Part shown: piece by piece, positions 32,596 through 58,343 of the stretch
How positions within the stretch are numbered: position 1 is the first letter of the stretch
How the letters are laid out: every line of letters starts with the position of its first letter
Source of the DNA: Escherichia coli
GTDB lineage: Bacteria > Pseudomonadota > Gammaproteobacteria > Enterobacterales > Enterobacteriaceae
DNA: 64,000 nucleotides
Assembly (NCBI RefSeq): GCF_048403405.1
Contig: NZ_CP183129.1
Reading direction: 5' to 3' (one strand)
Notes under the pieces: model-generated
The model's database searches: none
What the model saw: the letters and a program-made list of their open reading frames with translations, nothing else
Told to the model about the DNA's origin: nothing
Program-made: the position numbers and the translations under genes

Positions 32596-32687
32596 CTGAC
32601 AAATATCAATTAACAATTGATGATTTTGCCAACAGCCTACATAGCGCGATATACTGAAAATTCTCGCAGCAACTGAATGTTAAGCCT

Positions 32688-33173: not shown

Positions 33174-33176
33174 TAG

Positions 33177-33202
33177 AAAAGGCACCGCAAGGTGCCTTTT
33201 TT
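33177..33202. terminator. bidirectional rho-independent terminator between rraA and zapB
   Basis: aaaa-ggcacc-gcaa-ggtgcc-tttttt. Confidence 0.75.
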
Positions 33203-33257
33203 CTGCGTTACCTGTTGGCCTACACAGTAAAGAAATTACGCGAAAGATGAAGCGTAA

Positions 33258-33551
<294 letters not shown>

Positions 33552-33699
33552 TTACCGGTGACGCCTTAATAAATACGAGCGCACTTTAGTTAGCTCCGAT
33601 TGTATGAAGCCGCGCCATCGCTGTCCAGCGGCACGCCTTGCAGATTACGGTTTGCCACACTTTTCATCCTTCTCCTGGAGACATAATCCACACCAATCG

Positions 33700-33927
33700 A
33701 AAATGTTAATAAATTTGTTGCGTGAATGATCTAACAAACATGCATCATGTACAATCAGATGGAATAAATGGCGCGATAACGCTCATTTTATGACGAAGCA
33801 CACACATTTTAAGTTCGATATTTCTCGTTTTTGCTCGTTAACGATAAGTTTACAGCATGCCTACAAGCATCGTGGAGGTCCGTGACTTTCACGCATACAA
33901 CAAACATTAACTCTTCAGGATCCGATT
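33700..33927 (+). promoter_or_regulatory. glpFKX promoter region (GlpR operators and CRP site expected; not individually resolved)
   Basis: Position upstream of glpF; assignment from established operon knowledge only. Confidence 0.3.
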
Positions 33928-36304
<2,377 letters not shown>

Positions 36305-36438
36305 TGTAAATGCCGGATGAAGCGTTTATGCCGCATCCGGTAGTCCTGAATCGTGCGGGGGCAACCCCGCACACATCAATAATCCCGCCCTTCCCCTGTG
36401 CTACACTTCGCGCCATTCCTTACTGCTTAGAGTTTGCT

Positions 36439-37449
36439 ATGAGACGAGAACTTGCCATCGAATTTTCCCGCGTCACCGAATCTGCGGCGCTGGCTGGCTA
36501 CAAATGGTTAGGACGCGGCGATAAAAACACCGCGGACGGCGCAGCGGTAAACGCCATGCGTATTATGCTCAACCAGGTCAACATTGACGGCACCATCGTT
36601 ATTGGTGAAGGTGAAATCGACGAAGCACCGATGCTCTACATTGGTGAAAAAGTCGGTACTGGTCGCGGCGACGCGGTAGATATTGCTGTTGATCCGATTG
36701 AAGGCACGCGCATGACGGCGATGGGCCAGGCTAACGCGCTGGCGGTGCTGGCAGTAGGCGATAAAGGCTGTTTCCTCAACGCGCCAGATATGTATATGGA
36801 GAAGCTGATCGTCGGACCGGGAGCCAAAGGCACCATTGATCTGAACCTGCCGCTGGCGGATAACCTGCGCAATGTAGCGGCGGCGCTCGGCAAACCGTTG
36901 AGCGAACTGACGGTAACGATTCTGGCTAAACCACGCCACGATGCCGTTATCGCTGAAATGCAGCAACTCGGCGTACGCGTATTTGCTATTCCGGATGGCG
37001 ACGTTGCGGCCTCAATTCTCACCTGTATGCCAGACAGCGAAGTTGACGTGCTGTACGGTATTGGTGGCGCGCCGGAAGGCGTGGTTTCTGCGGCGGTGAT
37101 CCGCGCATTAGATGGTGACATGAACGGTCGTCTGCTGGCGCGTCATGACGTCAAAGGCGACAACGAAGAGAATCGTCGCATTGGCGAGCAGGAGCTGGCA
37201 CGCTGCAAAGCAATGGGCATCGAAGCCGGTAAAGTATTACGTCTGGGCGATATGGCACGCAGCGATAACGTCATCTTTTCTGCCACCGGTATTACCAAAG
37301 GCGATCTGCTGGAAGGCATTAGCCGCAAAGGCAATATCGCGACTACCGAAACGCTGCTGATCCGCGGCAAGTCACGCACCATTCGCCGCATTCAGTCCAT
37401 CCACTATCTGGATCGCAAAGACCCGGAAATGCAGGTGCACATTCTCTGA
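36439..37449 (+). CDS. glpX: fructose-1,6-bisphosphatase class II GlpX
   Basis: ORF 36310..37449 trimmed to ATG 36439 (MRRELAIEFSRVTESAALAG); 336 aa. Confidence 0.9.
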   Translation: MRRELAIEFSRVTESAALAGYKWLGRGDKNTADGAAVNAMRIMLNQVNIDGTIVIGEGEIDEAPMLYIGEKVGTGRGDAVDIAVDPIEGTRMTAMGQANALAVLAVGDKGCFLNAPDMYMEKLIVGPGAKGTIDLNLPLADNLRNVAAALGKPLSELTVTILAKPRHDAVIAEMQQLGVRVFAIPDGDVAASILTCMPDSEVDVLYGIGGAPEGVVSAAVIRALDGDMNGRLLARHDVKGDNEENRRIGEQELARCKAMGIEAGKVLRLGDMARSDNVIFSATGITKGDLLEGISRKGNIATTETLLIRGKSRTIRRIQSIHYLDRKDPEMQVHIL

Positions 37450-37470
37450 GTGATTTGATCGATTGAGCCT

Positions 37471-37498
37471 TCCAGTCCTTCGGGACTGGAATTTTTTT
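37471..37498 (+). terminator. rho-independent terminator after glpX
   Basis: tccagtcc-ttcg-ggactgga + TTTTTTT. Confidence 0.8.
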
Positions 37499-37545
37499 GT
37501 TCGGAGAACGAAGATAAGGCAAGTCAATCAAAACAGGAGAAAAAC

Positions 37546-38292
37546 ATGGCTGATTGGGTAACAGGCAAAGTCACTAAAGTGCAGAACTGGACCGACGCCC
37601 TGTTTAGTCTCACCGTTCACGCCCCCGTGCTTCCGTTTACCGCCGGGCAATTCACCAAGCTTGGCCTTGAAATTGACGGCGAACGCGTCCAGCGCGCCTA
37701 CTCCTATGTTAACTCGCCCGATAATCCGGATCTGGAGTTTTACCTGGTCACCGTCCCCGATGGCAAATTAAGCCCGCGACTGGCGGCACTGAAACCGGGC
37801 GATGAAGTGCAGGTGGTTAGCGAAGCCGCTGGCTTCTTTGTTCTGGATGAAGTACCAGATTGCGAAACGCTATGGATGCTGGCAACCGGTACAGCGATTG
37901 GCCCTTATTTATCGATTCTGCAACTGGGCAAAGATTTAGATCGCTTCAAAAATCTGGTCCTGGTTCACGCCGCACGTTATGCCGCCGACTTAAGCTATTT
38001 GCCACTGATGCAAGAACTGGAAAAACGCTACGAAGGCAAACTGCGCATTCAGACGGTGGTCAGTCGGGAAACGTCGGCGGGATCGCTCACCGGGCGGATA
38101 CCGGCGTTAATTGAAAGTGGTGAACTGGAAAGCGCGGTTGGCCTGCCGATGAATAAAGAAACCAGCCATGTGATGCTGTGCGGCAATCCACAGATGGTGC
38201 GCGATACGCAACAGTTACTGAAAGAGACCCGGCAGATGACGAAACATTTACGTCGCCGACCGGGCCATATGACAGCGGAGCATTACTGGTAA
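37546..38292 (+). CDS. fpr: ferredoxin/flavodoxin-NADP+ reductase
   Basis: 248 aa MADWVTGKVTKVQNWTDALFSLTVHAP. Confidence 0.95.
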   Translation: MADWVTGKVTKVQNWTDALFSLTVHAPVLPFTAGQFTKLGLEIDGERVQRAYSYVNSPDNPDLEFYLVTVPDGKLSPRLAALKPGDEVQVVSEAAGFFVLDEVPDCETLWMLATGTAIGPYLSILQLGKDLDRFKNLVLVHAARYAADLSYLPLMQELEKRYEGKLRIQTVVSRETSAGSLTGRIPALIESGELESAVGLPMNKETSHVMLCGNPQMVRDTQQLLKETRQMTKHLRRRPGHMTAEHYW

Positions 38293-38296
38293 GCGG

Positions 38297-38725
38297 TTAC
38301 TTATCGATAAACGGCACGATGAGCAAATCCGCACTCAACTTATTGATCATCCCGCGATATGCCGGCATCAAACGGTTGATAAATGAGTGGTGATGACCAC
38401 AGACAAGGAGGTCGCACTGCTCTTTTTGCATAATTTCCAGCAGTGTTTCCGGCATTTCTCCGCGTTCAATACGCAGTTTTGTCTTCGGCCATTGAATATT
38501 TTTCGTCAGTTTATACAGCTTGTTATCCGACTTATTCTTCAACAATTGAAGAATATCTTCTGTTGCAGGGAAGTAGATACCCGGATACAACTCGCTTAAG
38601 CCATCATCAATATGAATTAACGTCAGGTGAGCGTCATTATGTCTGGCGAGCTCCAGGGCTTTATTCACCAGTAAGGCATCTTCTTCATTCCCGGAAATTG
38701 CCACGCCAATGTGTTTATAAGCCAT
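38297..38725 (-). CDS. uspD: universal stress protein D
   Basis: 142 aa [28 protein letters not shown]. Confidence 0.9.
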
Positions 38726-38751
38726 GTTTAACTCCTTCTAAAGCAACTCCA

Positions 38752-39051
38752 TCAAGCTAACGAACGCAGTGATAACTCAAAAATAATCATCTCGGCCTGG
38801 CATGAGAAGGTGAAGGCCGCATCAAGCTCAACTTGCCCTTCCAGATCCTTAATCTTATAGGCCACGCTGGCCCCTTCATCTGCAGAGGATGCAGCGGCGG
38901 CAAGCTCTTTCAGTTTGGTCATAAAGGACTCTGCTTCTTCGCGGGTGGCAAAAAAACGCGAAAACTTACTGGTACAGTTGTCGTTATCAATCACCGTACC
39001 GATATCAATCGCACATCCTTTAGTACTGCATTTATCTACGACATCTTTCAT
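38752..39051 (-). CDS. yiiS: UPF0381-family protein YiiS
   Basis: 99 aa [30 protein letters not shown]. Confidence 0.8.
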
Positions 39052-39262
39052 AGGGCACCTCTGTATATTCGCCTCTCTGTCGATTACGACTTAAGAATAA
39101 TGCGCCGTTAAGGGAAGAACAAACAAGTAATGATCTTATGGATTACCATTTTTTTTGATATTGCTTAAGGTGAAGAGTTCAGAAGGATTTTCCGGGCATT
39201 GTCATTTGCATCGTGGAAATAACAATCCCGGAAAAAAATAGCAGTAAGAGATATATTAAAGG

Positions 39263-39703
39263 TTAATTACTTGATTTATTGTCGGCTTTATACTTCACAT
39301 CCTGGGTATCTTTACCATATTTATTTTCGCCTTGTGTGCCAACAAACGCACCAAGATCGATAAGCATCATCACCAGAATCAACGTCGGGACAAAACGCCC
39401 TACCGCCCATTGCCAGACACCCGGTAAAATCGCCCAGTTACCCGCCAGTAGCATCCACGCCACAATCATCAGAAATGCCCATGCGCCGGAACGCCCGCGA
39501 TCATGCAAGCGCTTAACGGTTACTGCCGCTGTTGGCCAGAGCAAGCACACAAGGCAAAACGCCGCAGTCTGAATATCGAGTAAATTTTTACCCGCCAGTG
39601 AGAAAAGCACCAGCATGCCTGCGAACCACAGGCCTATCCAAATCCAGAAATCACGGCGTCCAATACGCCCTTTAAATGAGAATAACCATTGCTGTATGGT
39701 CAT
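39263..39703 (-). CDS. yiiR: DUF805-family inner membrane protein YiiR
   Basis: 146 aa MTIQQWLFSFKGRIGRRDFWIWIGLWFAG. Confidence 0.8.
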   Translation of the reverse strand: MTIQQWLFSFKGRIGRRDFWIWIGLWFAGMLVLFSLAGKNLLDIQTAAFCLVCLLWPTAAVTVKRLHDRGRSGAWAFLMIVAWMLLAGNWAILPGVWQWAVGRFVPTLILVMMLIDLGAFVGTQGENKYGKDTQDVKYKADNKSSN

Positions 39704-39803
39704 GTAAGTTCCTTGATGGTTGTCTTTTCCAGGATTCTACCCTTTTGACAAGGGCGACAGATATCGTTTTAATCGGAGCCAGTCATAACAAAAGGTACTG
39801 TCA

Positions 39804-40403
39804 ATGAAGCCAGGGTGTACGCTGTTTTTTCTCTTATGTTCTGCATTAACCGTTACAACAACGGCGCATGCACAAACACCAGATACGGCAACGACCGCGC
39901 CTTATCTGCTGGCTGGAGCCCCTACTTTCGATCTCTCCATCAGCCAGTTTCGAGAAGACTTTAACAGCCAGAATCCCAGCCTGCCACTGAACGAATTTCG
40001 TGCCATCGACAGCAGTCCCGACAAAGCCAATCTCACTCGTGCTGCAAGTAAAATTAATGAGAACTTGTATGCTTCTACAGCGCTGGAGCGCGGTACCTTA
40101 AAAATCAAAAGCATTCAAATGACCTGGCTACCCATCCAGGGGCCAGAGCAAAAAGCCGCGAAAGCGAAAGCTCAGGAATACATGGCAGCGGTGATCCGCA
40201 CACTCACCCCATTAATGACCAAAACACAAAGCCAGAAAAAACTGCAGTCGCTACTAACGGCGGGGAAAAACAAACGTTATTACACCGAGACCGAAGGTGC
40301 ACTGCGTTATGTTGTCGCGGACAACGGCGAAAAGGGGCTGACCTTCGCTGTTGAACCGATTAAGCTGGCGCTATCTGAATCGCTTGAAGGTTTGAATAAA
40401 TGA
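39804..40403 (+). CDS. yiiQ: DUF1454-family secreted protein YiiQ
   Basis: 199 aa; signal peptide MKPGCTLFFLLCSALTVTTTAHA. Confidence 0.8.
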   Translation: MKPGCTLFFLLCSALTVTTTAHAQTPDTATTAPYLLAGAPTFDLSISQFREDFNSQNPSLPLNEFRAIDSSPDKANLTRAASKINENLYASTALERGTLKIKSIQMTWLPIQGPEQKAAKAKAQEYMAAVIRTLTPLMTKTQSQKKLQSLLTAGKNKRYYTETEGALRYVVADNGEKGLTFAVEPIKLALSESLEGLNK

Positions 40404-40510
40404 CAAAAAGCAAAGCCTTTGTGCCGATGAATCTCTATACTGTTTCACAGACCTGCTGCCCTGCGGGGCGGCCATCTTCCTTTATTCGCTTATAAGCGTG
40501 GAGAATTAAA

Positions 40511-41278
40511 ATGCGACATCCTTTAGTGATGGGTAACTGGAAACTGAACGGCAGCCGCCACATGGTTCACGAGCTGGTTTCTAACCTGCGTAAAGAGCTG
40601 GCAGGTGTTGCTGGCTGTGCGGTTGCAATCGCACCACCGGAAATGTACATCGATATGGCGAAGCGTGAAGCTGAAGGCAGCCACATCATGCTGGGTGCGC
40701 AAAACGTGGACCTGAACCTGTCCGGCGCATTCACCGGTGAAACCTCTGCTGCTATGCTGAAAGACATCGGCGCACAGTACATCATCATCGGCCACTCTGA
40801 ACGTCGTACTTACCACAAAGAGTCTGACGAACTGATCGCGAAAAAATTCGCGGTGCTGAAAGAGCAGGGTCTGACTCCGGTTCTGTGCATCGGTGAAACC
40901 GAAGCTGAAAACGAAGCGGGCAAAACTGAAGAAGTTTGTGCACGTCAGATCGACGCGGTACTGAAAACTCAGGGTGCTGCAGCATTCGAAGGTGCGGTAA
41001 TCGCTTACGAACCAGTATGGGCAATCGGTACTGGCAAATCTGCAACTCCGGCGCAGGCACAGGTTGTTCACAAATTCATCCGTGACCACATCGCTAAAGT
41101 TGACGCTAACATCGCTGAACAAGTGATCATCCAGTACGGCGGCTCTGTAAACGCGTCTAACGCTGCAGAACTGTTTGCTCAGCCAGACATCGACGGCGCG
41201 CTGGTTGGCGGTGCTTCTCTGAAAGCTGACGCTTTCGCAGTGATCGTTAAAGCTGCAGAAGCGGCTAAACAGGCTTAA
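40511..41278 (+). CDS. tpiA: triosephosphate isomerase
   Basis: 255 aa [30 protein letters not shown]. Confidence 0.95.
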
Positions 41279-41287
41279 GTCTGACAG

Positions 41288-41310
41288 GTGCCGGATTTCA
41301 TATCCGGCAC
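41288..41310. terminator. bidirectional terminator hairpin between tpiA and cdh
   Basis: gtgccggat-ttcat-atccggcac. Confidence 0.6.
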
Positions 41311-41332
41311 TTACTTTCCTTAACTCCTCGCC

Positions 41333-42088
41333 TTAACGCAAAATCTCACACTGATGATCCTGAATTTCCTCGGCTGAAGCACGGTTAAGCGTCAGTAGAT
41401 TTCGTTGTGTCGCCAGCAATACAAATGAGTTATCACTCTGCCGTACCATCGCCAGCCCGTAGCTTCCCATATGTTCCCGCGCCTCAGGTACTTCTTCTGC
41501 CAGCATCATAAATGGACTGCGTTGTACCAGTTCGCTTTCCGTTACCCGACGCGCCAGGTATTCATGCCCGCGCAAACCACCTGGCAGTGGCAACCAGCGG
41601 CTGCTGATGTTCGCCAGATTGTTATCCAGCTGTTCGCGCACATCAGGACGAATACAAGAGATATGAATATGAAAATGGTTTTGCGTACGCCCGGTGCGGG
41701 AGTTGATCGCCAAAGAAACCGCGCGATCGGGAACCGGCTGGCCGTATTTTTTGCTCATAAAATCACGCGCCTGCCAGGCCAACCAAAAGAAGTTCGGCGT
41801 TGAAGGATCGGTCAACAAAGGACTTTCAGTACCGTTAATACGATACGTTGGCATCAACAGATATTGCAGTGGGCCATTAAGATCTTTTAAAACCACGTAT
41901 CCGGCATTGGGTTTGACTTCCGCACATGGCGAAGGATTTTGATTTTGCTGTTGATTGGGCAAACATTCCTCAAGGACAATCTTACGTAATGTATCCGACT
42001 CTTCACCGGTTAATTTCCAGTAACCAATACCGGCAGCCACAACGGCGATAACTATCATCACCAAAAAAAGAAGACCCGCTTTTTTCAT
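41333..42088 (-). CDS. cdh: CDP-diacylglycerol pyrophosphatase
   Basis: ORF 41333..42280 trimmed to ATG 42088 ([20 protein letters not shown]); 251 aa. Confidence 0.9.
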
Positions 42089-42143
42089 CTTTTTTTCCCT
42101 GTACCTCAAAGAGATGCAAGGGTAACGCAAAATCGTGACAAAT

Positions 42144-42175
42144 AAAAAACCCGGTCGCGAGAAACCACCGGGTTT
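42144..42175 (-). terminator. putative terminator after sbp
   Basis: A-run, cccggt...accggg stem, T-run. Confidence 0.45.
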
Positions 42176-42194
42176 GATAATTATCCTGGGGAAA

Positions 42195-43184
42195 TCAGCG
42201 TTTGCTGATCTGATCGAACGTACCGCCGTTAGCAAAATGCTCTTTTTGCGCTTTCGTCCAGCCGCCGAACTCTTCATCAATGGTGAATAACTTCAATTTT
42301 GGAAACGCATTTTCGTACTTTTTCGCTACCTCAGCGTCGCGCGGACGGTAGTAGTTTTTCGCGGCAATTTCCTGACCTTCTGGCGAGTAGAGATATTTCA
42401 GATAGGCTTCCGCCACCTCTTTGGTGCCTTTTTTCTCGACCACTTTATCGACCACCGACACGGTTGGCTCTGCGAGGATAGACTCACTCGGCGTAACGAT
42501 TTCGAATTTATCTTTCCCCAGTTCATTCGCTGCCAGCAGAGCTTCGTTTTCCCAGGCGATCAGTACATCGCCAATTCCGCGCTCGACAAAAGTGTTAGTG
42601 GAGCCGCGCGCGCCAGAATCCAGAACTTCGACGTTTTTATACAGTGCCCGAACAAAATCCTGTGCTTTTGCCTGATCGTTGTTGTTGTGATGCAGCGCGT
42701 AGCCCCAGGCTGCCAGGTAGTTCCAGCGCGCGCCACCAGAGCTTTTCGGATTAGGCGTGATCACCGAAACACCCGGTTTAATCAGATCGTTCCAGTCATG
42801 GATCTGCTTCGGATTGCCCTTACGCACCAGGAAAACAATGGTGGAAGTGTACGGTGCGGAGTTATCCGGCAGACGTTTGATCCACTCTTTATCAATCCGC
42901 CCGCGTTCCGCAATCGCGTCCACGTCATAGGCCAGAGCCAGAGTGACAACATCAGCTTCAATACCATTGATTACCGACGTCGCTTGTTTGCCTGAACCAC
43001 CGTGTGACTGACGAATCACCACGTTATCGCCAGTTTGCTGTTTCCAGTGGGCGCTGAATGCCTTGTTGTACTGTTCGTACAATTCGCGCGTTGGATCATA
43101 TGAAACGTTAAGAAGCTGAATATCCTTTGCCATAACGCTGGTTGCCGCCAGCAAAAATGTTAACCCTACGCCCCACTTGTTCAT
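42195..43184 (-). CDS. sbp: periplasmic sulfate-binding protein
   Basis: 329 aa [35 protein letters not shown]. Confidence 0.95.
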
Positions 43185-43295
43185 CGCCCGACTCTCTTAT
43201 GTTGTGTTGTGATGAGCAAAGCGTGCCAGAAGGTTAACCAAACATTAAAGAATAAAAAAAGATTGGCTATAACTTGCGGGTATATGTTGAGGGAT

Positions 43296-43320
43296 TAAAA
43301 AGGCGGAAGAAATCCGCCTC
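43296..43320 (-). terminator. rho-independent terminator downstream of pfkA
   Basis: ggcgga-agaaa-tccgcc flanked by A/T runs. Confidence 0.5.
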
Positions 43321-43346
43321 ATATTGCTGACAAAGTGCGCTTTATC

Positions 43347-43450
43347 GATGCCGGATGCGGCGCGAACGCCTTATCAGGCCTACAAAAGTTTGCAAATTCA
43401 ATAAATTGCAGAATTCACGTAGGCCTGATAAGCGAAGCGCATCAGGCATT
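43347..43450. repeat. REP / BIME (two inverted palindromic units: gatgccggatgcggcgcgaacgccttatcaggcctac ... gtaggcctgataagcgaagcgcatcaggca)
   Basis: Classic REP consensus in convergent orientation. Confidence 0.85.
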
Positions 43451-43503
43451 TTTGCTTCTGTCATCGGTTTCAGGCTAAAGGAATCTGCCTTTTTCCGAAA
43501 TCA

Positions 43504-44466
43504 TTAATACAGTTTTTTCGCGCAGTCCAGCCAGTCGCCTTTGAACGGACGCTTCATGTTTTCGATAGCGTCGATGATGTCGTGGTGAACCAGCTGTTCG
43601 TTCTGGATACCTACGCAACGACCGCCGTAACCTGCCAGCAGCAGATCGATAGCGTAAGCGCCCATACGGGAAGCCAGAATACGGTCGTAAGGCACCGGAG
43701 AACCACCGCGCTGGATGTGGCCCAGCACAGTTGCGCGGGTTTCACGACCGGTTTCTTTCTCGATGAAATGCGCCAGTTCGTCAACATCACACATATGTTC
43801 GGTAATCGCCACGATCGCGTGTTTTTTACCTTTCGCGATACCCGCTTTGATTTCGTTTACCAGGTCTTCACGGCTGAATTCAACTTCCGGAACTACAACG
43901 AATTCACAGCCACCGGCAATGGCCGCAGCCAGGGTCAGATCGCCACAATAACGACCCATCACTTCCACCACGGAAATACGCTGGTGAGAAGAAGAGGTAT
44001 CACGCAGACGGTCGATCGCTTCTACAACGGTGCTCAGCGCAGTGAAGAAACCGATAGTGTAGTCAGTGCCTTTGATGTCGTTGTCGATAGTGCCAGGCAG
44101 ACCGATGCACGGGAAGCCCATTTCGGTCAGACGCATTGCACCCATGTAGGAACCGTCACCGCCGATAACCACCAGCGCGTCGATACCACGTTTTTTCAGG
44201 TTTTCGATAGCCACGGCGCGGATGTTCTCGTCGCGGAATTCCGGGAAACGCGCAGAACCGAGGAACGTACCACCACGGTTGATCATGTCAGACACGCTGT
44301 AACGGTCTAGCTGTACCATACGGTCTTCATACAGACCCAGATAGCCGTCATAAATGCCCATTACTTCCAGACCTTCTGTCAGCGCAGAACGAACAACCCC
44401 GCGAATTGCGGCGTTCATGCCTGGCGCATCACCGCCGCTTGTCAACACACCGATTTTCTTAATCAT
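43504..44466 (-). CDS. pfkA: ATP-dependent 6-phosphofructokinase I
   Basis: ORF 43504..44562 trimmed to ATG 44466 ([25 protein letters not shown]); 320 aa. Confidence 0.95.
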
Positions 44467-44646
44467 GACTACCTCTGAACTTTGGAATGCAAAATGAAAT
44501 CTGTTGCCGGAAGTCTTCTTGCACATCGAAGTGATCCAACGAATGTGCAAATAGTATAACAATCACTTCCTGCTGAATTGATTCAGGTCAGGCCAAATGG
44601 CGGTATTTTATACACAAAATGCGGGTCTGGCTCTCTTTTATACTGA

Positions 44647-45549
44647 TTATGAAAGCATAGACCGTTTACCCTCCCTGGGTACGACGGAACAGGGGTCCTG
44701 ATGGATAATCACATCCGATCCCGGAAAACGCCGTAAAATAGCCTGCTCTACCTGATCCGCCACCATATGTGCCTGAACCAAAGGCAGAGAGTCTTCCATT
44801 TCCAAATGAATCTGAATAAAGCGGGTCGGCCCTGACTGCCGCGTGCGAAGATCGTGAGCGCCGCTAACACCCGGCCAGGAAGTCACGATATCAATAATTT
44901 CTTGCCGTTCTTCATCAGGCAATGCGCGATCCAGTAATGACTGTACCGCCTCATATCCCATGCGTAACGCGCTATATAAAATATAGATGCCGATTCCCAA
45001 TGCAAACAGAGCATCGGCGCGATGCCAGCCATACCAGGACAACCCCAGCGCCAGCAGAATTGCGCCGTTCATCATAACATCAGACTGGTAATGTAGCATA
45101 TCAGCCCGCACCGCCTGGCTTTGCGTCCGGCGCACCACCCACCGCTGAAACGAGACAAGGATAATCGTACAAATTAGCGCCACAATTGTCACGATAACCC
45201 CGACGCCTGGATCTGTCATCGGTGTTGGAGATACCAGATGTTGAATACCCGTCAAAAAGAGGAATAGTGCCGAACCGGAGATAAACATACTTTGCGCCAG
45301 CGCCGCGAGGGACTCAGCTTTACCGTGACCAAACGAGTGATTATCGTCGGCAGGTTGCAGGGAATATCGCACCACCAGTAAATTCGTCAACGACGCGCCG
45401 ATATCCACCAGCGAATCCACCAGCGCGGCGAGAATACTCACCGACCCGGTATACCACCATGCAAAAATTTTAATCAGCAATAGCAGCGAAGCCATCGCCG
45501 TCGCAGCAATCGCCGCCCGACTGACCAGCCGTCCATAAGATTGATTCAT
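44647..45549 (-). CDS. fieF: cation diffusion facilitator (Fe/Zn efflux) FieF/YiiP
   Basis: ORF 44647..45567 trimmed to ATG 45549 ([21 protein letters not shown]); 300 aa. Confidence 0.9.
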
Positions 45550-45630
45550 AAATACTCCCGCTATCAACTGACGCTAGTATAACGGAAGCAAATCATCTGC
45601 AATGCATTAAGCAGCAGGCAAATTGAGGAT

Positions 45631-45690
45631 AAAAAAAACCCCCACATCATGTGGGGGAAGACAGGGATGGTGTCTATGGCAAGGAAAACA
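45631..45690 (-). ncRNA. cpxQ: CpxQ-like 3'UTR-derived sRNA of cpxP (includes the terminator hairpin)
   Basis: Minus-strand ...uuccuugccauagacaccaucccugucuu-cccccacaugaugugggggUUUUUUUU immediately after the cpxP stop; matches the CpxQ sequence as I remember it. Confidence 0.5.
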
Positions 45691-45697
45691 GGGTTTA

Positions 45698-46198
45698 CTA
45701 CTGGGAACGTGAGTTGCTACTACTCAATAGCTTCAACGATGAACTTTTTTGCCATTGCGTCACGTCGCGCAACTGCTCCATTCGTTGTTGATGTTTCTCG
45801 TTTAAAACCGCTTGCTGCTCCGGCGTTAACAGGCGATACATTTGGTTGCGGACTTTTGCCATCTCAACCTGACGAGCAATTTGCTCATTCGCCATTTTTT
45901 CTGCCTGCGCGCGCACAGCGTTTTCATCAAAATTTTCTGCGGTGACAAGGCGATGCATTGTCTCCAGTTCGCTAACATTAACAGGAGGCTGTTCGTGCCG
46001 GGCCTGTTGCATAAGATCTCGCATCTGCTGACGCTGATGTTCGGTTAAACTTATGCCGTCGAACATATGGCTCTGCGTACTGCGCTGCGTAAGTTCTTCA
46101 CCCGGATGCCAGTTATCGCCTGAACCGACTTCAGCAGCGTGGCTTAATGAACTGACTGCCAGCGTTGAGGCCATGACGGCAGCGGTAACTATGCGCAT
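45698..46198 (-). CDS. cpxP: periplasmic stress adaptor CpxP
   Basis: 166 aa from ATG 46198 ([24 protein letters not shown]); two LTxxQ motifs. Confidence 0.9.
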
Positions 46199-46277
46199 CA
46201 TTTGCTCCCAAAATCTTTCTGTCGCGATTCAACGATAGAGAGTTTACGATTCAGGCTGCAAACATGCGTCAGGGGGT

Positions 46278-46292
46278 GTAAAACAACGTAAA
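46278..46292. promoter_or_regulatory. CpxR-P binding box GTAAA-N5-GTAAA in the cpxP/cpxRA divergent region
   Basis: gtaaaacaacgtaaa is an exact consensus match. Confidence 0.75.
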
Positions 46293-46347
46293 GTCATGGA
46301 TTAGCGACGTCTGATGACGTAATTTCTGCCTCGGAGGTATTTAAACA

Positions 46348-47046
46348 ATGAATAAAATCCTGTTAGTTGATGATGACCGAGAGCTGACTTCCCTATTAAA
46401 GGAGCTGCTCGAGATGGAAGGCTTCAACGTGATTGTTGCCCACGATGGGGAACAGGCGCTTGATCTTCTGGACGACAGCATTGATTTACTTTTGCTTGAT
46501 GTAATGATGCCGAAGAAAAATGGTATCGACACATTAAAAGCACTTCGCCAGACACACCAGACGCCTGTCATTATGTTGACGGCGCGCGGCAGTGAACTTG
46601 ATCGCGTTCTCGGCCTTGAGCTGGGCGCAGATGACTATCTCCCGAAACCGTTTAATGATCGTGAGCTGGTGGCACGTATTCGCGCGATCCTGCGCCGTTC
46701 GCACTGGAGCGAGCAACAGCAAAACAACGACAACGGTTCACCGACACTGGAAGTTGATGCCTTAGTGCTGAATCCAGGCCGTCAGGAAGCCAGCTTCGAC
46801 GGGCAAACGCTGGAGTTAACCGGCACTGAGTTTACCCTGCTCTATTTGCTGGCACAGCATCTGGGTCAGGTAGTTTCCCGTGAACATTTAAGCCAGGAAG
46901 TGCTGGGCAAACGCCTGACGCCTTTCGACCGCGCTATTGATATGCACATTTCCAACCTGCGTCGTAAACTGCCGGATCGTAAAGATGGTCACCCGTGGTT
47001 TAAAACCTTGCGTGGTCGCGGCTATCTGATGGTTTCTGCTTCATGA
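46348..47046 (+). CDS. cpxR: envelope stress response regulator CpxR (OmpR family)
   Basis: 232 aa MNKILLVDDDRELTSLLKELLEMEGF. Confidence 0.95.
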   Translation: MNKILLVDDDRELTSLLKELLEMEGFNVIVAHDGEQALDLLDDSIDLLLLDVMMPKKNGIDTLKALRQTHQTPVIMLTARGSELDRVLGLELGADDYLPKPFNDRELVARIRAILRRSHWSEQQQNNDNGSPTLEVDALVLNPGRQEASFDGQTLELTGTEFTLLYLLAQHLGQVVSREHLSQEVLGKRLTPFDRAIDMHISNLRRKLPDRKDGHPWFKTLRGRGYLMVSAS

Positions 47047-48416
47047 TAGGCAGCTTAACCGCGCGCATCTTCGCCATCTTCTGGCTGACGCTGGCGCTGG
47101 TGTTGATGTTGGTTTTGATGTTACCCAAGCTCGATTCACGCCAGATGACCGAGCTTCTGGATAGCGAACAGCGTCAGGGTCTGATGATTGAGCAGCATGT
47201 CGAAGCGGAGCTGGCGAACGATCCGCCCAATGATTTAATGTGGTGGCGGCGTCTGTTCCGGGCGATTGATAAGTGGGCACCGCCAGGACAGCGTTTGTTA
47301 TTGGTGACCACCGAAGGCCGCGTGATCGGCGCTGAACGCAGCGAAATGCAGATCATTCGTAACTTTATTGGTCAGGCCGATAACGCCGATCATCCGCAGA
47401 AGAAAAAGTATGGACGCGTGGAACTGGTCGGTCCGTTCTCCGTGCGTGATGGCGAAGATAATTACCAACTTTATCTGATTCGTCCGGCCAGCAGTTCTCA
47501 ATCCGATTTCATTAACTTACTGTTTGACCGCCCGCTATTACTGCTGATTGTCACCATGTTGGTCAGTACGCCGCTGCTGTTGTGGTTGGCCTGGAGTCTG
47601 GCAAAACCGGCGCGTAAGCTGAAAAACGCGGCCGATGAAGTTGCCCAGGGAAACTTACGTCAGCACCCGGAACTGGAAGCGGGGCCACAGGAATTCCTTG
47701 CCGCAGGTGCCAGTTTTAACCAGATGGTCACCGCGCTGGAGCGCATGATGACCTCTCAGCAGCGTCTACTTTCTGATATCTCTCACGAACTGCGCACCCC
47801 GCTGACGCGTCTGCAACTGGGTACGGCGTTACTGCGCCGTCGTAGCGGTGAAAGCAAGGAACTGGAGCGTATTGAAACCGAAGCGCAACGTCTGGACAGC
47901 ATGATCAACGATCTGTTGGTGATGTCACGTAATCAGCAGAAAAATGCGCTGGTTAGCGAGACCATCAAAGCCAACCAGTTGTGGAGTGAAGTGCTGGATA
48001 ACGCGGCGTTCGAAGCCGAGCAGATGGGCAAGTCGTTGACGGTTAACTTCCCGCCTGGGCCGTGGCCGCTGTACGGCAATCCGAACGCCCTGGAAAGTGC
48101 GCTGGAAAACATTGTTCGTAATGCTCTGCGTTATTCCCATACGAAGATTGAAGTGGGCTTTGCGGTAGATAAAGACGGTATCACCATTACGGTGGACGAC
48201 GATGGTCCTGGCGTTAGCCCGGAAGATCGCGAACAGATTTTCCGTCCGTTCTATCGGACCGATGAAGCACGCGATCGTGAATCTGGCGGTACAGGTTTGG
48301 GGCTGGCGATTGTTGAAACCGCCATTCAGCAGCATCGTGGCTGGGTTAAAGCGGAAGACAGCCCGCTGGGCGGTTTACGGCTGGTGATTTGGTTGCCGCT
48401 GTATAAGCGGAGTTAA
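47043..48416 (+). CDS. cpxA: envelope stress sensor histidine kinase CpxA
   Basis: 457 aa; H-box SHELRTPLTR; 4-bp overlap with cpxR. Confidence 0.95.
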   Translation: MIGSLTARIFAIFWLTLALVLMLVLMLPKLDSRQMTELLDSEQRQGLMIEQHVEAELANDPPNDLMWWRRLFRAIDKWAPPGQRLLLVTTEGRVIGAERSEMQIIRNFIGQADNADHPQKKKYGRVELVGPFSVRDGEDNYQLYLIRPASSSQSDFINLLFDRPLLLLIVTMLVSTPLLLWLAWSLAKPARKLKNAADEVAQGNLRQHPELEAGPQEFLAAGASFNQMVTALERMMTSQQRLLSDISHELRTPLTRLQLGTALLRRRSGESKELERIETEAQRLDSMINDLLVMSRNQQKNALVSETIKANQLWSEVLDNAAFEAEQMGKSLTVNFPPGPWPLYGNPNALESALENIVRNALRYSHTKIEVGFAVDKDGITITVDDDGPGVSPEDREQIFRPFYRTDEARDRESGGTGLGLAIVETAIQQHRGWVKAEDSPLGGLRLVIWLPLYKRS

Positions 48417-48444
48417 ACTCGGCGCAGAGCCGTCCCCTTCGGGG

Positions 48445-48612
48445 TGAAGACAACAGGTCAGCACTGTGCGAACTGATACCCTCACCCCGGCCCTCTCCCT
48501 GAAAGGGCGAGGGGGAAAAACGTAGCCCTGTTCAGCAACGGAGCTGAGCACCGCTCCGGACAGTCCCCTCGCCCCTCTGGGGAGAGGGTTAGGGTGAGGG
48601 GAAAAATTCAGC
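48445..48612. repeat. GC-rich intergenic repeat cluster (boxC-like), related to 1555..1690 in opposite orientation
   Basis: ccctcaccccggccctctccctgaaagggcgaggggg ... cccctcgcccctctggggagagggttagggtgagggg. Confidence 0.6.
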
Positions 48613-48671
48613 ACAATGCAAACGGCACTGCTCTCACCGGAAACCATGCCAGATTTCGTATTAAGGCAGAC

Positions 48672-49346
48672 TTATTTTCCCCACAACCGGCGGGAAAAAT
48701 CTTCGATCTTGCCGCTCAGTCGGCGCTTTTGCATCGTCCGCGTCCAGCTTTTCGATAACCCGGCGGCGGAGAGTAAACGGTGATACTGCTCGTCATCAAA
48801 CGGCATATGCCATGCGATGGCGGCAGCCTCCTGCACGGTCACATCACTGACACGGGAAACCAACTCCAGCGGCGCATCAGCAGATACCAACCCTGGCGCA
48901 ATCACGCTATACAACCACCCCACTTTACCCGTGTTTTGCATCAACTGCGCTATATCGCTGATATCAAAATGGTAATTGAGTTTATAGCAAGGTGAGCGTG
49001 GCTGGCTGACCTGAATTAATGCCTCTCCCCAGCGGAAAATATCGCCAATATAAACATTACTTTCCGTCAGACCGTCGGTTGAGAGATTTTCGCCAAACGC
49101 AGGCGCAACAAACAACTCCGCCTGTTCCGGAAATTCCCGCGCCCAGTAGAGATAGTGCTCACGAGGATAATGACACAGCGCTCTGTCTGGCCCGCCGTGA
49201 ACCTTTTTCTCCGCCTGCTCGTCACCTTCCAGCCCCAGCTCCGTCAGCATCAACTCACCATCAACCTGGATTTTAGCAATTGCGCTGGGTTTGCCTTCGG
49301 GATAAGCCTGAATCTTGCCTGTGTATACATCAACCGGATATCGCAT
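48672..49346 (-). CDS. yiiM: MOSC-domain protein YiiM
   Basis: ORF 48672..49376 trimmed to ATG 49346 (MRYPVDVYTGKIQAYPEGKPS); 224 aa. Confidence 0.85.
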   Translation of the reverse strand: MRYPVDVYTGKIQAYPEGKPSAIAKIQVDGELMLTELGLEGDEQAEKKVHGGPDRALCHYPREHYLYWAREFPEQAELFVAPAFGENLSTDGLTESNVYIGDIFRWGEALIQVSQPRSPCYKLNYHFDISDIAQLMQNTGKVGWLYSVIAPGLVSADAPLELVSRVSDVTVQEAAAIAWHMPFDDEQYHRLLSAAGLSKSWTRTMQKRRLSGKIEDFSRRLWGK

Positions 49347-49494
49347 CTGTTCCCTCTCCACGAGAAATTTCCCCATTAGACCATATTTATTTTATGTCAG
49401 GCGTGCTGTTTTCGCGGTAAGTATCCAGGCAGGAACTCAATAGCAAACCGGACGAACGTTAGTTCATCCGGCTGTGGGGATTAAGGAAGCAGGT

Positions 49495-50439
49495 TTATTT
49501 CACCGTACCTAAAATTTCGATTTTCGCTGCTCTGGCTTTGACTTTACGTGACCAGATAGAGGTAAGAATTGGCACCAGAATCGAAGTCACAATGACCGCC
49601 GTCGCGACCAGCGAAGTTGCTGCCGGAGCCATCGGTTTAAACGCAGGCACCATTTCTGCAATCAGCACAGGTGTCGCTACCGCGGCCCCTGCGGAACTGG
49701 AAGCGGCAATTCCGGCAGTGCCATCGCCACCGCCAATCAATTTATCGGCGATAATCAACGGAATACCGGTCACGATAATTACTGCCACACCCAACAGGAT
49801 CCCCAGCAAACCTGTCTGGGCAATTACAGTCAAATCAATGGTATTGCCCAGCGCGAAGGCAAAGAATGGAATCAGCGTCTGCACCGCTTTGCTGAAAAAT
49901 TCTCGTAATTCAGGGTCAAGGTTCCCAAGGGCAAAGCCCACCAGGAACGGTAATACTGCGCCGACGAAAACATGCGGTTCAAACGAGGCAATCCCGGCAG
50001 TGCCCAGAATAATCATCGTCATGAGCGGCCCGGACTCCAATGACATCAACACAAATGCCCCAGCTTCTTCTTTTGTGCCGTACTGCTGCATGATGGAAGC
50101 GTAAAGTCCGCCGTTGGTCATATCCATCGCCGCCACCAGCGCCAGCGTTGAAAGTCCGGCAAAGAATCCAACTTCAACACCATGTTCCGGAATAATGCGC
50201 GAGGCAATTGCCGCAACCACCCACGCGACGGCAATTTTTGTTACCACCAGCGTACCGGATTTACGCAATACCGTTCCCGTCGCGCTTAATTGTATTGACG
50301 CCCCCATGCAAAAAAACCACACCGCCAGAATGGGCACCGTACCGGTAATCATCCCGTTGGTGAATGATCCAAAATATTTCCCCGCCTCCGGCGAGAAGGT
50401 GTGGCACAGTGCGCCAAGGAATAGCGGGACGAGCATCAT
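49495..50439 (-). CDS. kdgT: 2-keto-3-deoxygluconate permease; N-terminus here starts at MMLVPLF, with the expected upstream 13 codons in another frame
   Basis: 314 aa ORF; polytopic membrane protein; see finding on the C6/G3 homopolymer at 50436..50477. Confidence 0.85.
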
Positions 50440-50649
50440 CCCCCCGGGATTTTCTCAATCGAGCGTTTTATCTGCATTTCCATCACCTGTCGGCATATTT
50501 TTAAGGGCTGATGCGTAATTCCTCAATGGAGCATCAGTGTTGATGGAAACGAAGATAGACATTCATTTAATCAATAAAAGTGATCAAAACCACATCAATT
50601 GAAACACTGTTTTATTTTTATCGGATCATTGTTTTTATTTTGAAATTGA

Positions 50650-51360
50650 TCACAAATAAATATCCTCCGGCATAGCCGGAGGTTTTTCAAATGCGCCTAT
50701 AAGGCTCTCTTACCAGCCGCGCCCTAACAGGCGCACACGATCTGACATTTGCATCCAACTTCGTTACTTACGGCCCGTAAACGGGCTGCCCGGATAGGGA
50801 ATCGATAACTGCTCTCCCATTTTATCCTCTTCAAGCTGGTGCTTTATGTAATCCTGTATCTTCGCCGTGTTCTTACCCACCGTATCGACGTAGTACCCTC
50901 TGCACCAGAACTCCCTGTTCCTGTATTTGAATTTCAAATCACCAAACTGCTCGTAAAGCATCAGACTGCTTTTCCCTTTCAGATATCCCATAAAGCCGGA
51001 TACGCTCATTTTGGGCGGGATCTCCACAAGCATATGGATATGATCTGCACAGCATTCAGCTTCCAGAATCCGTACACTTTTCCACTCACACAGCTTTCTC
51101 AAAATACTGCCTATTGCTCTACGCTTCTCTCTGTAGAACACCTGTCTTCGGTATTTTGGCGCAAAAACTATGTGATATTTACAGTTCCATCGGGTGTGCG
51201 CTAAGCTCTTTTCGTTCCCCATTGGGACCCCCTTTTGATTTCTTGTTTGACACTTGCAGTTGCCAGACCGCAAGGTGTTTTAACAAATCAAAAGGGGTTT
51301 TAATAACTGGCTTAAAGCTGAAAGCTTTCCGGAACCCCCAGCCTAGCTGGGGGTTTTCTG
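50650..51360 (-). mobile_element. IS200-like element (IS200/IS605 family), approximate boundaries
   Basis: Contains IS200-type TnpA; characteristic perfect hairpins cctccggc-ata-gccggagg (50665..50683) and cccccagc-cta-gctggggg (51334..51353) near the ends. Confidence 0.75.
50764..51225 (-). CDS. tnpA: IS200 transposase TnpA (HuH Y1 family)
   Basis: MGNEKSLAHTRWNCKYHIVFAPKYRRQVFYREKRRAIGSILRKLCEWKSVRILEAECCADHIHMLVEIPPK... ; HxH motif; ~153 aa. Confidence 0.9.
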   Translation of the reverse strand, partial: PMGNEKSLAHTRWNCKYHIVFAPKYRRQVFYREKRRAIGSILRKLCEWKSVRILEAECCADHIHMLVEIPPKMSVSGFMGYLKGKSSLMLYEQFGDLKFKYRNREFWCRGYYVDTVGKNTAKIQDYIKHQLEEDKMGEQLSIPYPGSPFTGRK

Positions 51361-51451
51361 TGCACAACAAAAAAACCACCGCCGTTGGCGATGGTTCATT
51401 TTTTAAGCTGATATGCGGCGTAAACGCCTCATTGCAGCAGGCGGCAAATGA

Positions 51452-52072
51452 TTATTTTTTCGCCGCGAAACGTGCCGCTGCTTCGTCCCAGTTCACCACG
51501 TTCCAGAACTCTTTGATGTAGTCAGGACGGCGGTTCTGGAATTTCAGGTAGTAAGCATGTTCCCACACATCCAGGCCCAGAATCGGGAAGCCGGAAGCGC
51601 CAGAAATAGCTTCACCCATCAGCGGGGAGTCCTGGTTAGCAGTAGAAACCACCGCCAGTTTATCGCCTTTCAGCACCAGCCATGCCCAGCCGGAACCAAA
51701 GCGGGAAGCTGCCGCTTTTTCAAATTCTGCTTTGAAGTTATCAACGGAGCCGAAGTCACGTTCGATAGCCGCTTTCAGGTCACCCTGCAGGGTGGTGCCT
51801 TTTTTCAGACCTTTCCAGAACAGGCTGTGGTTAGCGTGACCGCCAGCGTTGTTGCGCAGTACGGTTTTCTTGTCTGCTGGCAGCTGGTCCAGTTTGGTGA
51901 TCAGCTCTTCAACCGGCAGGTTGGCAAATTCTGGCAGGCTTTCCAGCGCCGCGTTGGCGTTGTTGACGTAGGTCTGATGGTGTTTGGTGTGGTGGATTTC
52001 CATGGTCTGCTTATCGAAGTGCGGTTCCAGGGCATCGTAAGCATACGGCAGGGATGGCAGGGTATAACTCAT
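51452..52072 (-). CDS. sodA: manganese superoxide dismutase
   Basis: ORF 51452..52078 trimmed to ATG 52072 ([32 protein letters not shown]); 206 aa. Confidence 0.95.
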
Positions 52073-52356
52073 ATTCATCTCCAGTGTTGTCGGGCGGCCG
52101 ATTGTTAATGCCGCGTAAGCAGTTGGTTCATTATAGTTAATTAAATGATATTGAAAATGATTATCAATGCCGTACTTTTCGTAAGGGTATGGTTTTGCAG
52201 GAAAATGCCCGAGATGTGAAGCAAATCACCCACTTAATGCCGTGATTGCCAGTAAATCGACAACGGCGGCAACAGGCGAAAGGTTAATCGACAGCACGAT
52301 TTTTACACTCATCTCGTCGGAGATGTGACGCGACGAAAAATGATGAGGATAAGAAG

Positions 52357-53391
52357 ATGAGTAACGCGATTACGATGGGGATATTTTGGCATTTGATCGG
52401 CGCGGCCAGTGCAGCCTGTTTTTACGCTCCGTTCAAAAAAGTAAAAAAATGGTCATGGGAAACCATGTGGTCAGTTGGTGGGATTGTTTCGTGGATTATT
52501 CTGCCGTGGGCCATCAGCGCCCTGTTACTACCGAATTTCTGGGCGTATTACAGCTCGTTTAGTCTCTCTACGCTGCTGCCTGTTTTTCTGTTCGGCGCAA
52601 TGTGGGGGATTGGTAATATCAACTACGGCCTGACCATGCGTTATCTCGGCATGTCGATGGGGATTGGTATCGCCATTGGTATCACGTTGATTGTTGGTAC
52701 GCTGATGACGCCAATTATCAACGGCAATTTCGATGTGTTGATCAATACCGAAGGTGGACGCATGACATTGCTCGGCGTTCTGGTGGCGCTGATTGGTGTA
52801 GGGATTGTGACTCGCGCCGGGCAGTTGAAAGAGCGCAAGATGGGCATTAAAGCCGAAGAGTTCAACCTGAAAAAAGGGCTGGTGCTGGCGGTGATGTGCG
52901 GCATTTTCTCTGCCGGAATGTCCTTTGCGATGAACGCCGCAAAACCGATGCATGAAGCCGCTGCCGCACTGGGCGTCGATCCACTGTATGTCGCTCTGCC
53001 AAGCTATGTTGTCATCATGGGCGGCGGCGCGATCATTAACCTCGGTTTCTGCTTCATTCGTCTGGCAAAAGTGAAGGATTTGTCGCTAAAAGCCGACTTC
53101 TCGCTGGCAAAACCGCTGATCATTCACAATGTGTTACTCTCAGCACTGGGCGGGTTGATGTGGTATCTGCAATTCTTTTTCTATGCCTGGGGCCACGCGC
53201 GTATTCCGGCGCAGTATGACTACATCAGCTGGATGCTGCATATGAGCTTCTATGTATTGTGCGGCGGTATCGTCGGGCTGGTGCTCAAAGAGTGGAACAA
53301 TGCAGGTCGCCGTCCGGTAACGGTGTTGAGCCTCGGTTGTGTAGTGATTATTGTCGCCGCCAACATCGTCGGCATGGGCATGGCGAATTAA
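52357..53391 (+). CDS. rhaT: L-rhamnose:H+ symporter
   Basis: 344 aa [28 protein letters not shown]. Confidence 0.95.
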
Positions 53392-54236
53392 TCTTTCTGC
53401 GAATTGAGATGACGCCACTGGCTGGGCGTCATCCCGGTTTCCCGGGTAAACACCACCGAAAAATAGTTACTATCTTCAAAGCCACATTCGGTTGAAATAT
53501 CACTGATTAACAGGCGGCTATGCTGGAGAAGATATTGCGCATGACACACTCTGACCTGCCGCAGATATTGATTGATGGTCATGCCAGTCTGCTGGCGAAA
53601 TTGCTGACGCAAAACGCGCTCACTGCACGATGCCTCATCACAAAATTTATCCAGCGCAAAGGGACTTTTCAGGCTGGCCGCCAGCCGGGTAATCAGCTTA
53701 TCCAGCAACGTTTCGCTGGATGTTGGCGGCAACGAATCGCTGGTGTAACGATGGCGATTCAGCAACATCACCAACTGCCCGAACAGCAACTCTGCCATTT
53801 CGTTAGCAAACGGCACATGCTGACTACTTTCATGCTCAAGTTGACCGATAACCTGCCGCGCCTGCGCCATCCCCACGCTACCTAAGCGCCAGTGTGGCTG
53901 CCCTGCGCTGGCACTAAATCCCGGAATCGCCCCCTGCCAGTCAAGATTCAGCTTCAGCCGCTCCGGGCAATAAATAATATTCTGCAAAACCAGATCGTTA
54001 ACGGAAGCGTAGGAGTGTTTATCGTCAGCATGAATGTAAAAGAGATCGCCACGGGTAATGCGATAAGGGCGATCGTTGAGTACATGCAGACCATTACCGC
54101 GCCAGACAATCACCAGCTCACAAAAATCATGTGTATGTTCGGCAAAGACATCTTGCGGATAACGGTCAGCCACAGCGACTGCCTGCTGGTCGCTGGCAAA
54201 AAAATCATCTTTGAGAAGTTTTAACTGATGCGCCAC
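53388..54236 (-). CDS. rhaR: AraC-family rhamnose regulator RhaR
   Basis: ORF 53388..54347 trimmed to GTG 54236 ([29 protein letters not shown]); 282 aa. Confidence 0.85.
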
Positions 54237-54309
54237 CGTGGCTACCTCGGCCAGAGAACGAAGTTGATTATTCGCAATATGGCGTACAAATACGTTGAGA
54301 AGATTCGCG

Positions 54310-55146
54310 TTATTGCAGAAAACCATCCCGTCCCTGACGAATATCACGCGGTGACCAGTTAAACTCTCGGCGAAAAAGCGTCGAAAAGTGGTTACTGTCG
54401 CTGAATCCGCAGCGATAGGCGATGTCAGTAACGCTGGCCTCGCTGTGGCGTAGCAGATGTCGGGCTTTCATCAGTCGCAGGCGGTTCAGGTAACGCTGAG
54501 GCGTCAGTCCCGTTTTCTGCTTAAGCTGCCGATGTAGCGTACGCAGCGAAAGAGAAAATTGATCCGCCACGGCATCCCAATTTACCTCATCGGCAAAATG
54601 GTCCTCCAGCCAGGCCAGAAGCAAGTTGAGACGTGACGCGCTGTTTTCCAGGTTCTCCTGCAAACTGCTTTTACGCAGCAAGAGCAGTAATTGCATAAAT
54701 AAGATCTCGCGACTGGCGGTCGAGGGTAAATCATTTTCCTCTTCCTGCTGTTCCATCTGTGCAACCAGCTGTCGCACCTGCTGCAACACGCTGTGGTTAA
54801 CGCGCCAGTGAGACGGATACTGCCCATCCAGCTCTTGTGGCAGCAACTGATTCAGCCCGGCGAGAAACTGAAATCGATCCGGCGAGCGATACAGCACATT
54901 GGTCAGACACAGATTATCGGTATGTTCATACAGATGCCGATCATGATCGCGTACGAAACAGACCGTGCCACCGGTGATGGTATAGGGCTGCCCATTAAAC
55001 ACATGAATACCCGTGCCATGTTCGACAATCACAATTTCATGAAAATCATGATGATGTTCAGGAAAATCCGCCTGCGGGAGCCGGGGTTCTATCGCCACGG
55101 ACGCGTTACCAGACGGAAAAAAATCCACACTATGTAATACGGTCAT
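54310..55146 (-). CDS. rhaS: AraC-family rhamnose regulator RhaS
   Basis: 278 aa [35 protein letters not shown]. Confidence 0.95.
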
Positions 55147-58159
<3,013 letters not shown>

Positions 58160-58163
58160 ACAC

Positions 58164-58290
58164 TGCCTGATGCGGCGCAAGCGCCTTATCCGGCCTACGG
58201 GTCGGCAATAGTTGTAGGCCTGATAAGACGCGACAGCGTCGCATCAGGCATTGATTGCCGGATGCGGCACGAGTGCCTTATCCGGCCTAC
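58164..58290. repeat. REP / BIME cluster (three palindromic units) between rhaA and rhaD
   Basis: gcctgatgcggcgcaagcgccttatccggcctac; gtaggcctgataagacgcgacagcgtcgcatcaggca; gccggatgcggcacgagtgccttatccggcctac. Confidence 0.85.
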
Positions 58291-58343
58291 AGATCGTATA
58301 TCCGGCAACAGGCACGGACGTCCAATTAACAGGAACACAGAAC

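Follow-up and report, generated by a model that had tools for sequence, protein, structure and literature searches.

The cpxP 3′UTR of an Escherichia coli chromosome segment carries the known small RNA CpxQ in its standard version

The region 3′ of cpxP in the window, by which we mean the whole stretch of 64,000 nt analyzed here, encodes the known small RNA (sRNA) CpxQ; it is already known and present in its standard version. CpxQ comprises 58 nt at positions 45631..45688 of the minus strand (UUUUCCUUGCCAUAGACACCAUCCCUGUCUUCCCCCACAUGAUGUGGGGGUUUUUUUU), starts 10 nt past the stop codon of cpxP and is encoded on the same strand as this gene. Read along the minus strand, the cpxP 3′UTR consists of UAAACCCUG followed by UUUUCCUUGCCAUAGACACCAUCCCUGUCUUCCCCCACAUGAUGUGGGGGUUUUUUUU and measures 67 nt to the end of the U-tract (45697..45631). 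Judged from its sequence, this E. coli cpxP-CpxQ locus would almost certainly work as described for K-12 and Salmonella. The following elements were delineated at the locus:

45659..45688, minus strand: single-stranded regulatory part of CpxQ (nt 1–30), near-invariant in homologs
45678..45688, minus strand: 5′ seed of CpxQ (nt 1–11), UUUUCCUUGCC, unchanged in the window, including C11
45639..45657, minus strand: terminator stem-loop with 8 bp and the loop UGA, from the terminator scan and folding
45631..45638, minus strand: U8 tract completing the Rho-independent terminator, from the sequence
45686..45691, minus strand: candidate RNase E processing context CCUG/UUUU, positioned according to the K-12 annotation
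45698..46198, minus strand: coding sequence of cpxP (166 aa), the parental mRNA of CpxQ, with the stop codon TAG at 45700..45698
minus strand, next to cpxP: fieF, in the order fieF-cpxP-cpxR-cpxA
46278..46292, plus strand: CpxR~P box GTAAAACAACGTAAA in the divergent cpxP/cpxRA promoter region, an exact GTAAA-N5-GTAAA
46348..47046, plus strand: cpxR, divergent from cpxP, forming a two-component system with cpxA and driving the transcription of cpxP/CpxQ
47043..48416, plus strand: cpxA, forming the two-component system with cpxR

In the RefSeq annotation of E. coli MG1655, the non-coding RNA cpxQ (b4716) is 58 nt long, lies on the cpxP strand and starts 10 nt past the last base of cpxP. The alignment with the sequence in the window yielded 57 identical nucleotides out of 58. 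The single mismatch affects nt 42 of CpxQ (window position 45647) within the 3-nt terminator loop, where an A is found here and a C in K-12. The 58-nt allele of the window was matched in full in 4192 of 5424 E. coli records, while 1223 records deviated from it by one or two bases. The allele at nt 42 is the majority form in complete E. coli genomes. Compared to the CpxQ RNAs of K-12 (b4716) and Salmonella (Chao & Vogel 2016; Grabowicz et al. 2016), the RNA described here shares the location in the cpxP 3′UTR, the strand, the length of 58 nt, the seed with C11, the stem and the CpxR-driven promoter; it differs from the K-12 version only in the mentioned loop base, which is located outside of the stem and the seed. 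The original prediction of a CpxQ-like sRNA in the cpxP 3′UTR was thus confirmed with regard to identity, strand and position. It had assigned the sRNA to the 60 nt after the stop codon (45631–45690), an interval that does contain all of CpxQ but includes two extra nucleotides at the 5′ end and begins 7 nt past the stop codon.

A terminator scan detected a single terminator in this region (45657..45639), consisting of an 8-bp stem with six G-C pairs and a 3-nt loop, followed by U8, in agreement with the strong terminator that had been predicted. The hairpin alone folds with −13.8 kcal/mol, and the entire 67-nt 3′UTR with −17.4 kcal/mol (z = −2.35). A second, small hairpin was predicted within CpxQ between nt 14–18 and nt 26–30, the bases of which never vary among the homologs. 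The U-tract of Hfq-dependent sRNAs serves as a 3′ Hfq-binding module, a role that the literature suggests for the U-tract of CpxQ as well.

To collect homologs, we scanned one genome per species with the pattern CCTTGCCA-N8-9-TCCCTGTCT and obtained at least 120 loci. In 96 of the 120 matches listed, a homolog of cpxP immediately precedes the match on the same strand. The remaining listed matches mostly belong to unrelated phyla, lack a terminator and are chance matches, while loci L012, L037, L044 and L052 apparently represent CpxQ copies cut by the edge of the locus. Among the matches listed, the homologs cover about 100 species of Enterobacterales and comprise 59 distinct sequences from the families Enterobacteriaceae, Erwiniaceae, Yersiniaceae, Pectobacteriaceae, Hafniaceae and Morganellaceae. 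Only sequences with six or more consecutive U were admitted to this set of 59, hence their U-tract is not an independent finding.

Nucleotides 1–30 of CpxQ are near-invariant in the 59 distinct homologs among the matches listed. As the search itself specified the two anchor motifs, their constancy is subject to ascertainment bias; the free bases, the UUUU at the 5′ end and the linkage to cpxP do not suffer from this bias. The nine bases not specified by the pattern, TAGACACCA, are near-invariant as well, with three exceptions in Pantoea stewartii and two Erwinia species. The constancy of nt 1–30 persists even where the identity of CpxP is only about 36–45%. This bears on the possibility that the 3′ end of cpxP is merely a terminator with a passive 3′UTR and without any function in trans. 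The canonical intrinsic terminator is consistent with such a reading, as all genes need one. However, the 30 nt upstream of the hairpin are near-invariant throughout the order while the coding end of cpxP and the stem sequence diverge, and a passive spacer would not be expected to exceed its gene in conservation. Moreover, regulation of skp, nhaB and cfa in trans has been published, including experiments with compensatory mutations. We consider a purely passive 3′UTR very unlikely.

In the terminator, it is the pairing that is maintained. We found 25 distinct terminator stems among the homologs, all of which pair over 5–9 bp with −8.8 to −17.1 kcal/mol when folded individually. Chimeras in which the arms were swapped between species were weaker, with a mean of −8.5 compared to −13.0 kcal/mol. 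In a model-guided alignment, all eight pairs of the terminator showed compensatory changes on both sides, and 91.4% of the terminator cells were pairing versus 70.8% in shuffles, with none of 500 shuffles reaching any of the observed measures and with a collapse in slid registers; these values have to be read with the caveat that the alignment had been fitted to the model. An analysis of covariation on a plain MAFFT alignment (A2) was dropped since it did not bring the hairpin arms of different species into register.

RNase E probably cleaves between positions 45689 and 45688, which would match the annotated 5′ end in K-12. The consensus for RNase E is purine-N-W-U-U, and among the matches listed, 92 of 98 homologous sites have a context of this R-N-W-U-U-like type around the 5′ end. 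Some sRNAs from 3′UTRs, such as DapZ and MicL, possess internal promoters, and CpxQ could by analogy be transcribed directly from a promoter located within the end of cpxP and need no processing. A scan for sigma-70 promoters between 45400 and 46500 gave no promoter-like site, and a start with UUUU would be a poor initiating sequence. The conserved processing context speaks against this possibility as well, as does the literature, which gives processing by RNase E and a natural 5′ monophosphate for CpxQ (PMC9438474, PMC6755755, PMC10250213). A promoter of its own is therefore hardly probable, and we keep to processing from the cpxP mRNA. The same scan did not place the core promoter of cpxP either, which is unsurprising given that this promoter depends on an activator.

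The original prediction had proposed a comparison to an Rfam model of CpxQ, with the lack of a covariance model hit as refutation. Searching the whole window with Rfam 15 at gathering thresholds, we obtained no match at the CpxQ site. We repeated the search permissively with 801 bases around the site and E-values up to 10. On the CpxQ strand, this rerun gave no meaningful family match; the matches on the minus strand belong to unrelated families, the best one being NsiR1 with 20.4 bits, and lie far below their gathering scores. The only meaningful match was to RF02628 (Hrs1) at 45631..45703 on the plus strand, with 44.5 bits (E = 3e-7) compared to a gathering score of 56.4 bits. Within the window, this threshold was not reached on the transcribed strand.

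We found that the Hrs1 consensus opens with A7 followed by a hairpin, which corresponds to a terminator read backwards, and includes CCUUGCCA...UCCCUGUCU in reverse complement along with the terminator. The Hrs1 model exceeded its gathering score in the loci of Erwinia persicina and E. aphidicola with 82.7 and 72.8 bits, respectively, in both cases on the strand opposite to cpxP and the CpxQ motif (L043, 5697..5771, plus strand; L058, 1298..1373, plus strand). In Erwinia amylovora, hrs1 was listed in the arrangement cpxP / hrs1 / fieF with the orientation > > >, hence on the cpxP strand, and with a Rho-independent terminator (PMC4070566). Hrs1 is Hfq-dependent and was detected by Northern blot (PMC4070566). 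It thus resembles CpxQ in its locus between cpxP and fieF, in its dependence on Hfq and in its terminator (Zeng & Sundin 2014). The model, in contrast, represents the opposite strand and is tuned to Erwinia, so that CpxQ of E. coli scores 44.5 instead of the required 56.4 bits. RF02628 therefore appears to be the Erwinia ortholog of CpxQ, stored as its reverse complement. Hrs1 has been called specific for Erwinia (PMC4070566), which is contradicted by the conservation throughout the order among the matches listed.

A functional RNA on the plus strand, antisense to or independent of cpxP, is extremely improbable: the only meaningful Rfam match and the Erwinia matches above the gathering score do have this orientation, but such an RNA would open with A8 and a hairpin that is a backward terminator and would have no terminator of its own, and hrs1 in Erwinia as well as cpxQ in the K-12 annotation were placed on the cpxP strand. 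The published orientation (PMC4070566) and the Erwinia loci led us to reject the Hrs1 match as an antisense RNA in favor of an inverted strand in the family itself. The shortfall of RF02628 says nothing against the assignment of the minus-strand RNA as CpxQ, as this family is apparently strand-inverted.

There is no correctly oriented, usable CpxQ family in Rfam, which is why no family reached its gathering score here. The proposed check did indeed give no such match at the site, but its use as a refutation is not valid, as a right-strand model for CpxQ does not exist in Rfam. We therefore built a custom covariance model (R1) from 14 homologs of other species in which the variable stem positions all differ from those in the window, with the 8-bp terminator set as structure. 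Applied to the whole window, R1 yielded a single match at exactly 45631..45688 on the minus strand with 90.6 bits (E = 7e-23), followed by a runner-up of 11.5 bits.

The divergent promoter region contains the exact CpxR box that had been predicted at 46278..46292. It matches the CpxR consensus GTAAA-N5-GTAAA (PMC9600279, PMC3158067) and is the only exact instance on either strand of the 64-kb window, compared to 0.07 expected by chance; seven of 100 shuffles of the window gave at least one exact instance. Relative to the cpxP ATG, the box is situated 80–94 nt upstream, and its end lies 56 nt ahead of the cpxR ATG; it is part of a cpxP-cpxR intergenic region that is identical to K-12 in 149 of 149 positions. 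In Yersinia pseudotuberculosis, DNase I footprints as well as mutagenesis combined with EMSA identified the equivalent box, about 55 nt upstream of cpxR, as a CpxR~P site (PMC3158067). By its sequence and position, the box in the window is the CpxR~P site already known from the divergent promoter between cpxP and cpxRA. Like the boxes of the Cpx regulon (degP, ppiA, cpxRA/cpxP), it matches the consensus exactly, and it occupies the place of the cpxR/cpxP site that has been footprinted; we found no difference from them. Among the matches listed, 75 loci extended far enough upstream, and 73 of these have an exact box in the same orientation, mostly at −94 to −104 from the start of cpxP.

The gene order cpxP, cpxR, cpxA is the same as in K-12, and the CpxP, CpxR and CpxA proteins each share 100% identity with their K-12 counterparts. 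The earlier statement that the envelope-stress circuit is intact thus holds, as does its rating as ordinary biology, since both CpxQ and the CpxR box were already known and rank with the best-characterized components of the envelope-stress response in E. coli. Upon inner-membrane (envelope) stress, CpxA would become active, leading to the phosphorylation of CpxR, and CpxR~P bound to the box at 46278..46292 would switch on the cpxP promoter. The monocistronic cpxP mRNA would end at the intrinsic terminator (45631..45657), and a cut by RNase E with Hfq about 10 nt past the stop codon would release a stable CpxQ of 58 nt with a 5′ monophosphate (45688..45631). Bound to Hfq, CpxQ would then pair with target mRNAs via its invariant, single-stranded 5′ part, the known targets being nhaB, skp, agp, ydjN, fimA and cfa. 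Pairing would repress translation and/or recruit RNase E, with the expected outcome of fewer inner-membrane proteins and less mistargeting of outer-membrane proteins.

CpxQ of Salmonella was reportedly described by Chao and Vogel in 2016. The biogenesis of CpxQ by RNase E and Hfq near the stop codon as well as its targets have been reported (PMC9438474). In E. coli, the processed CpxQ is 58 nt long and uses its 5′ end as the seed for nhaB and cfa; the exchange C11G abolishes the repression of cfa (PMC6755755). By lowering Skp, CpxQ of E. coli prevents outer-membrane proteins from being mistargeted to the inner membrane (PMC4817254). In E. coli, CpxQ further shows unusual stability, and it represses nhaB irrespective of how its 5′ end is phosphorylated (PMC10250213). 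With SdhX, SroC, MicL-S, NarS and GlnZ it has in common the release from an mRNA 3′ end, a shared terminator as Hfq module and a conserved, single-stranded seed (PMC9438474); in contrast, these sRNAs have other parental genes, seeds and regulons and show no sequence relationship to CpxQ.

The invariant nt 1–30 include bases without known pairing to any validated target. An extra constraint that has not been described so far may act on this segment, such as a second conserved partner or a structure guiding maturation by Hfq and RNase E together with stability, and a copy of the 3′ half in Erwiniaceae could be a paralogous sRNA; taken together, we regard this proposal as doubtful.

The latter part of this proposal refers to partial second CpxQ-like copies that we observed in Rosenbergiella gaditana (L018, 5596..5644, plus strand), 2.6 kb downstream of the real CpxQ, and in Tatumella ptyseos (L048, 7042..7088, plus strand), 1.1 kb downstream of it. 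Both consist of the 3′ half only (CACCAUCCCUGUCU plus terminator) and lack the 5′ seed UUUUCCUUGCCAUAGA. The Rosenbergiella copy comprises GGATTTCTTCACCATCCCTGTCT plus the CpxQ terminator of its own species; the copy in Tatumella shares this core, and its 3′ stem arm is truncated. About 60 nt upstream of the partial copies are conserved between the two genera, and the partial copy may represent a paralogous sRNA in its own right.

The window is E. coli chromosome. Compared to strain 4621 (NZ_CP103479.1), it shows 100% identity over 1..26152 and 99.99% over 25560..64000, and the 801 bases around the site were found in 5425 of 5426 complete E. coli genomes. In another strain, E. coli GN02461 (NZ_CP095533.1), an IS200C transposase is annotated inside the stretch that matches window positions 45560..46360 (cpxP/cpxR region), a naturally occurring disruption close to the Cpx promoter or CpxQ. 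The window itself has an IS200C insertion between kdgT and sodA (about 50765..51355, minus strand), annotated likewise in strain 4621, with an Rfam match to STnc490 (51232..51355, 146 bits) directly upstream of the IS200C tnpA. Further Rfam matches at gathering score were naRNA4, a REP-like element (58217..58287, minus strand), ES036/CssrF downstream of pfkA (43385..43426, plus strand), the ClpQY (hslVU) promoter element (29676..29733, plus strand) and the L31 (rpmE) leader (25012..25064, minus strand), all of which are expected in this part of the E. coli chromosome.

The original prediction had further placed the Cpx circuit next to accessory envelope-targeting toxins. This refers to an Rhs element, in which we distinguished the following features:

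about 15794..24633, minus strand: Rhs element between yiiX and rpmE
20404..24633, minus strand: full RHS core protein of 1409 aa within this element
19925..20392, minus strand: small SEL1-like ORF downstream of the RHS core, within the same element

Between this element and cpxP lie about 21 kb with around 20 core genes, from rpmE to fieF. The only Pfam assignments in the RHS core protein were its core domain, the RHS repeats and DUF6531; no match was obtained for the C-terminal tip, which contains no recognizable toxin domain. The statement was thus overstated, and the label “envelope-targeting” for the tip of the Rhs protein is unsupported. We also asked whether the Rhs element is functionally connected to the Cpx locus and found no such link, given the distance, the intervening core genes and the lack of a toxin domain at the tip. 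The Rhs element also contains orphan Rhs C-terminal fragments and remnants of IS1 and ISAs1, and two segments of 1015 bp (16596..17609 and 20926..21939) are 97.5% identical to each other.

With regard to annotation, none of the eight E. coli records listed has a PGAP feature at the sequence of CpxQ, while the curated MG1655 record contains cpxQ (b4716). This gap probably results from the lack of a correctly oriented CpxQ family in Rfam. Re-orienting RF02628 would let pipelines annotate CpxQ across the Enterobacterales. The practical value of this result lies in annotation; for the biology it adds nothing new, as the strain has a standard CpxQ and a standard CpxR box.
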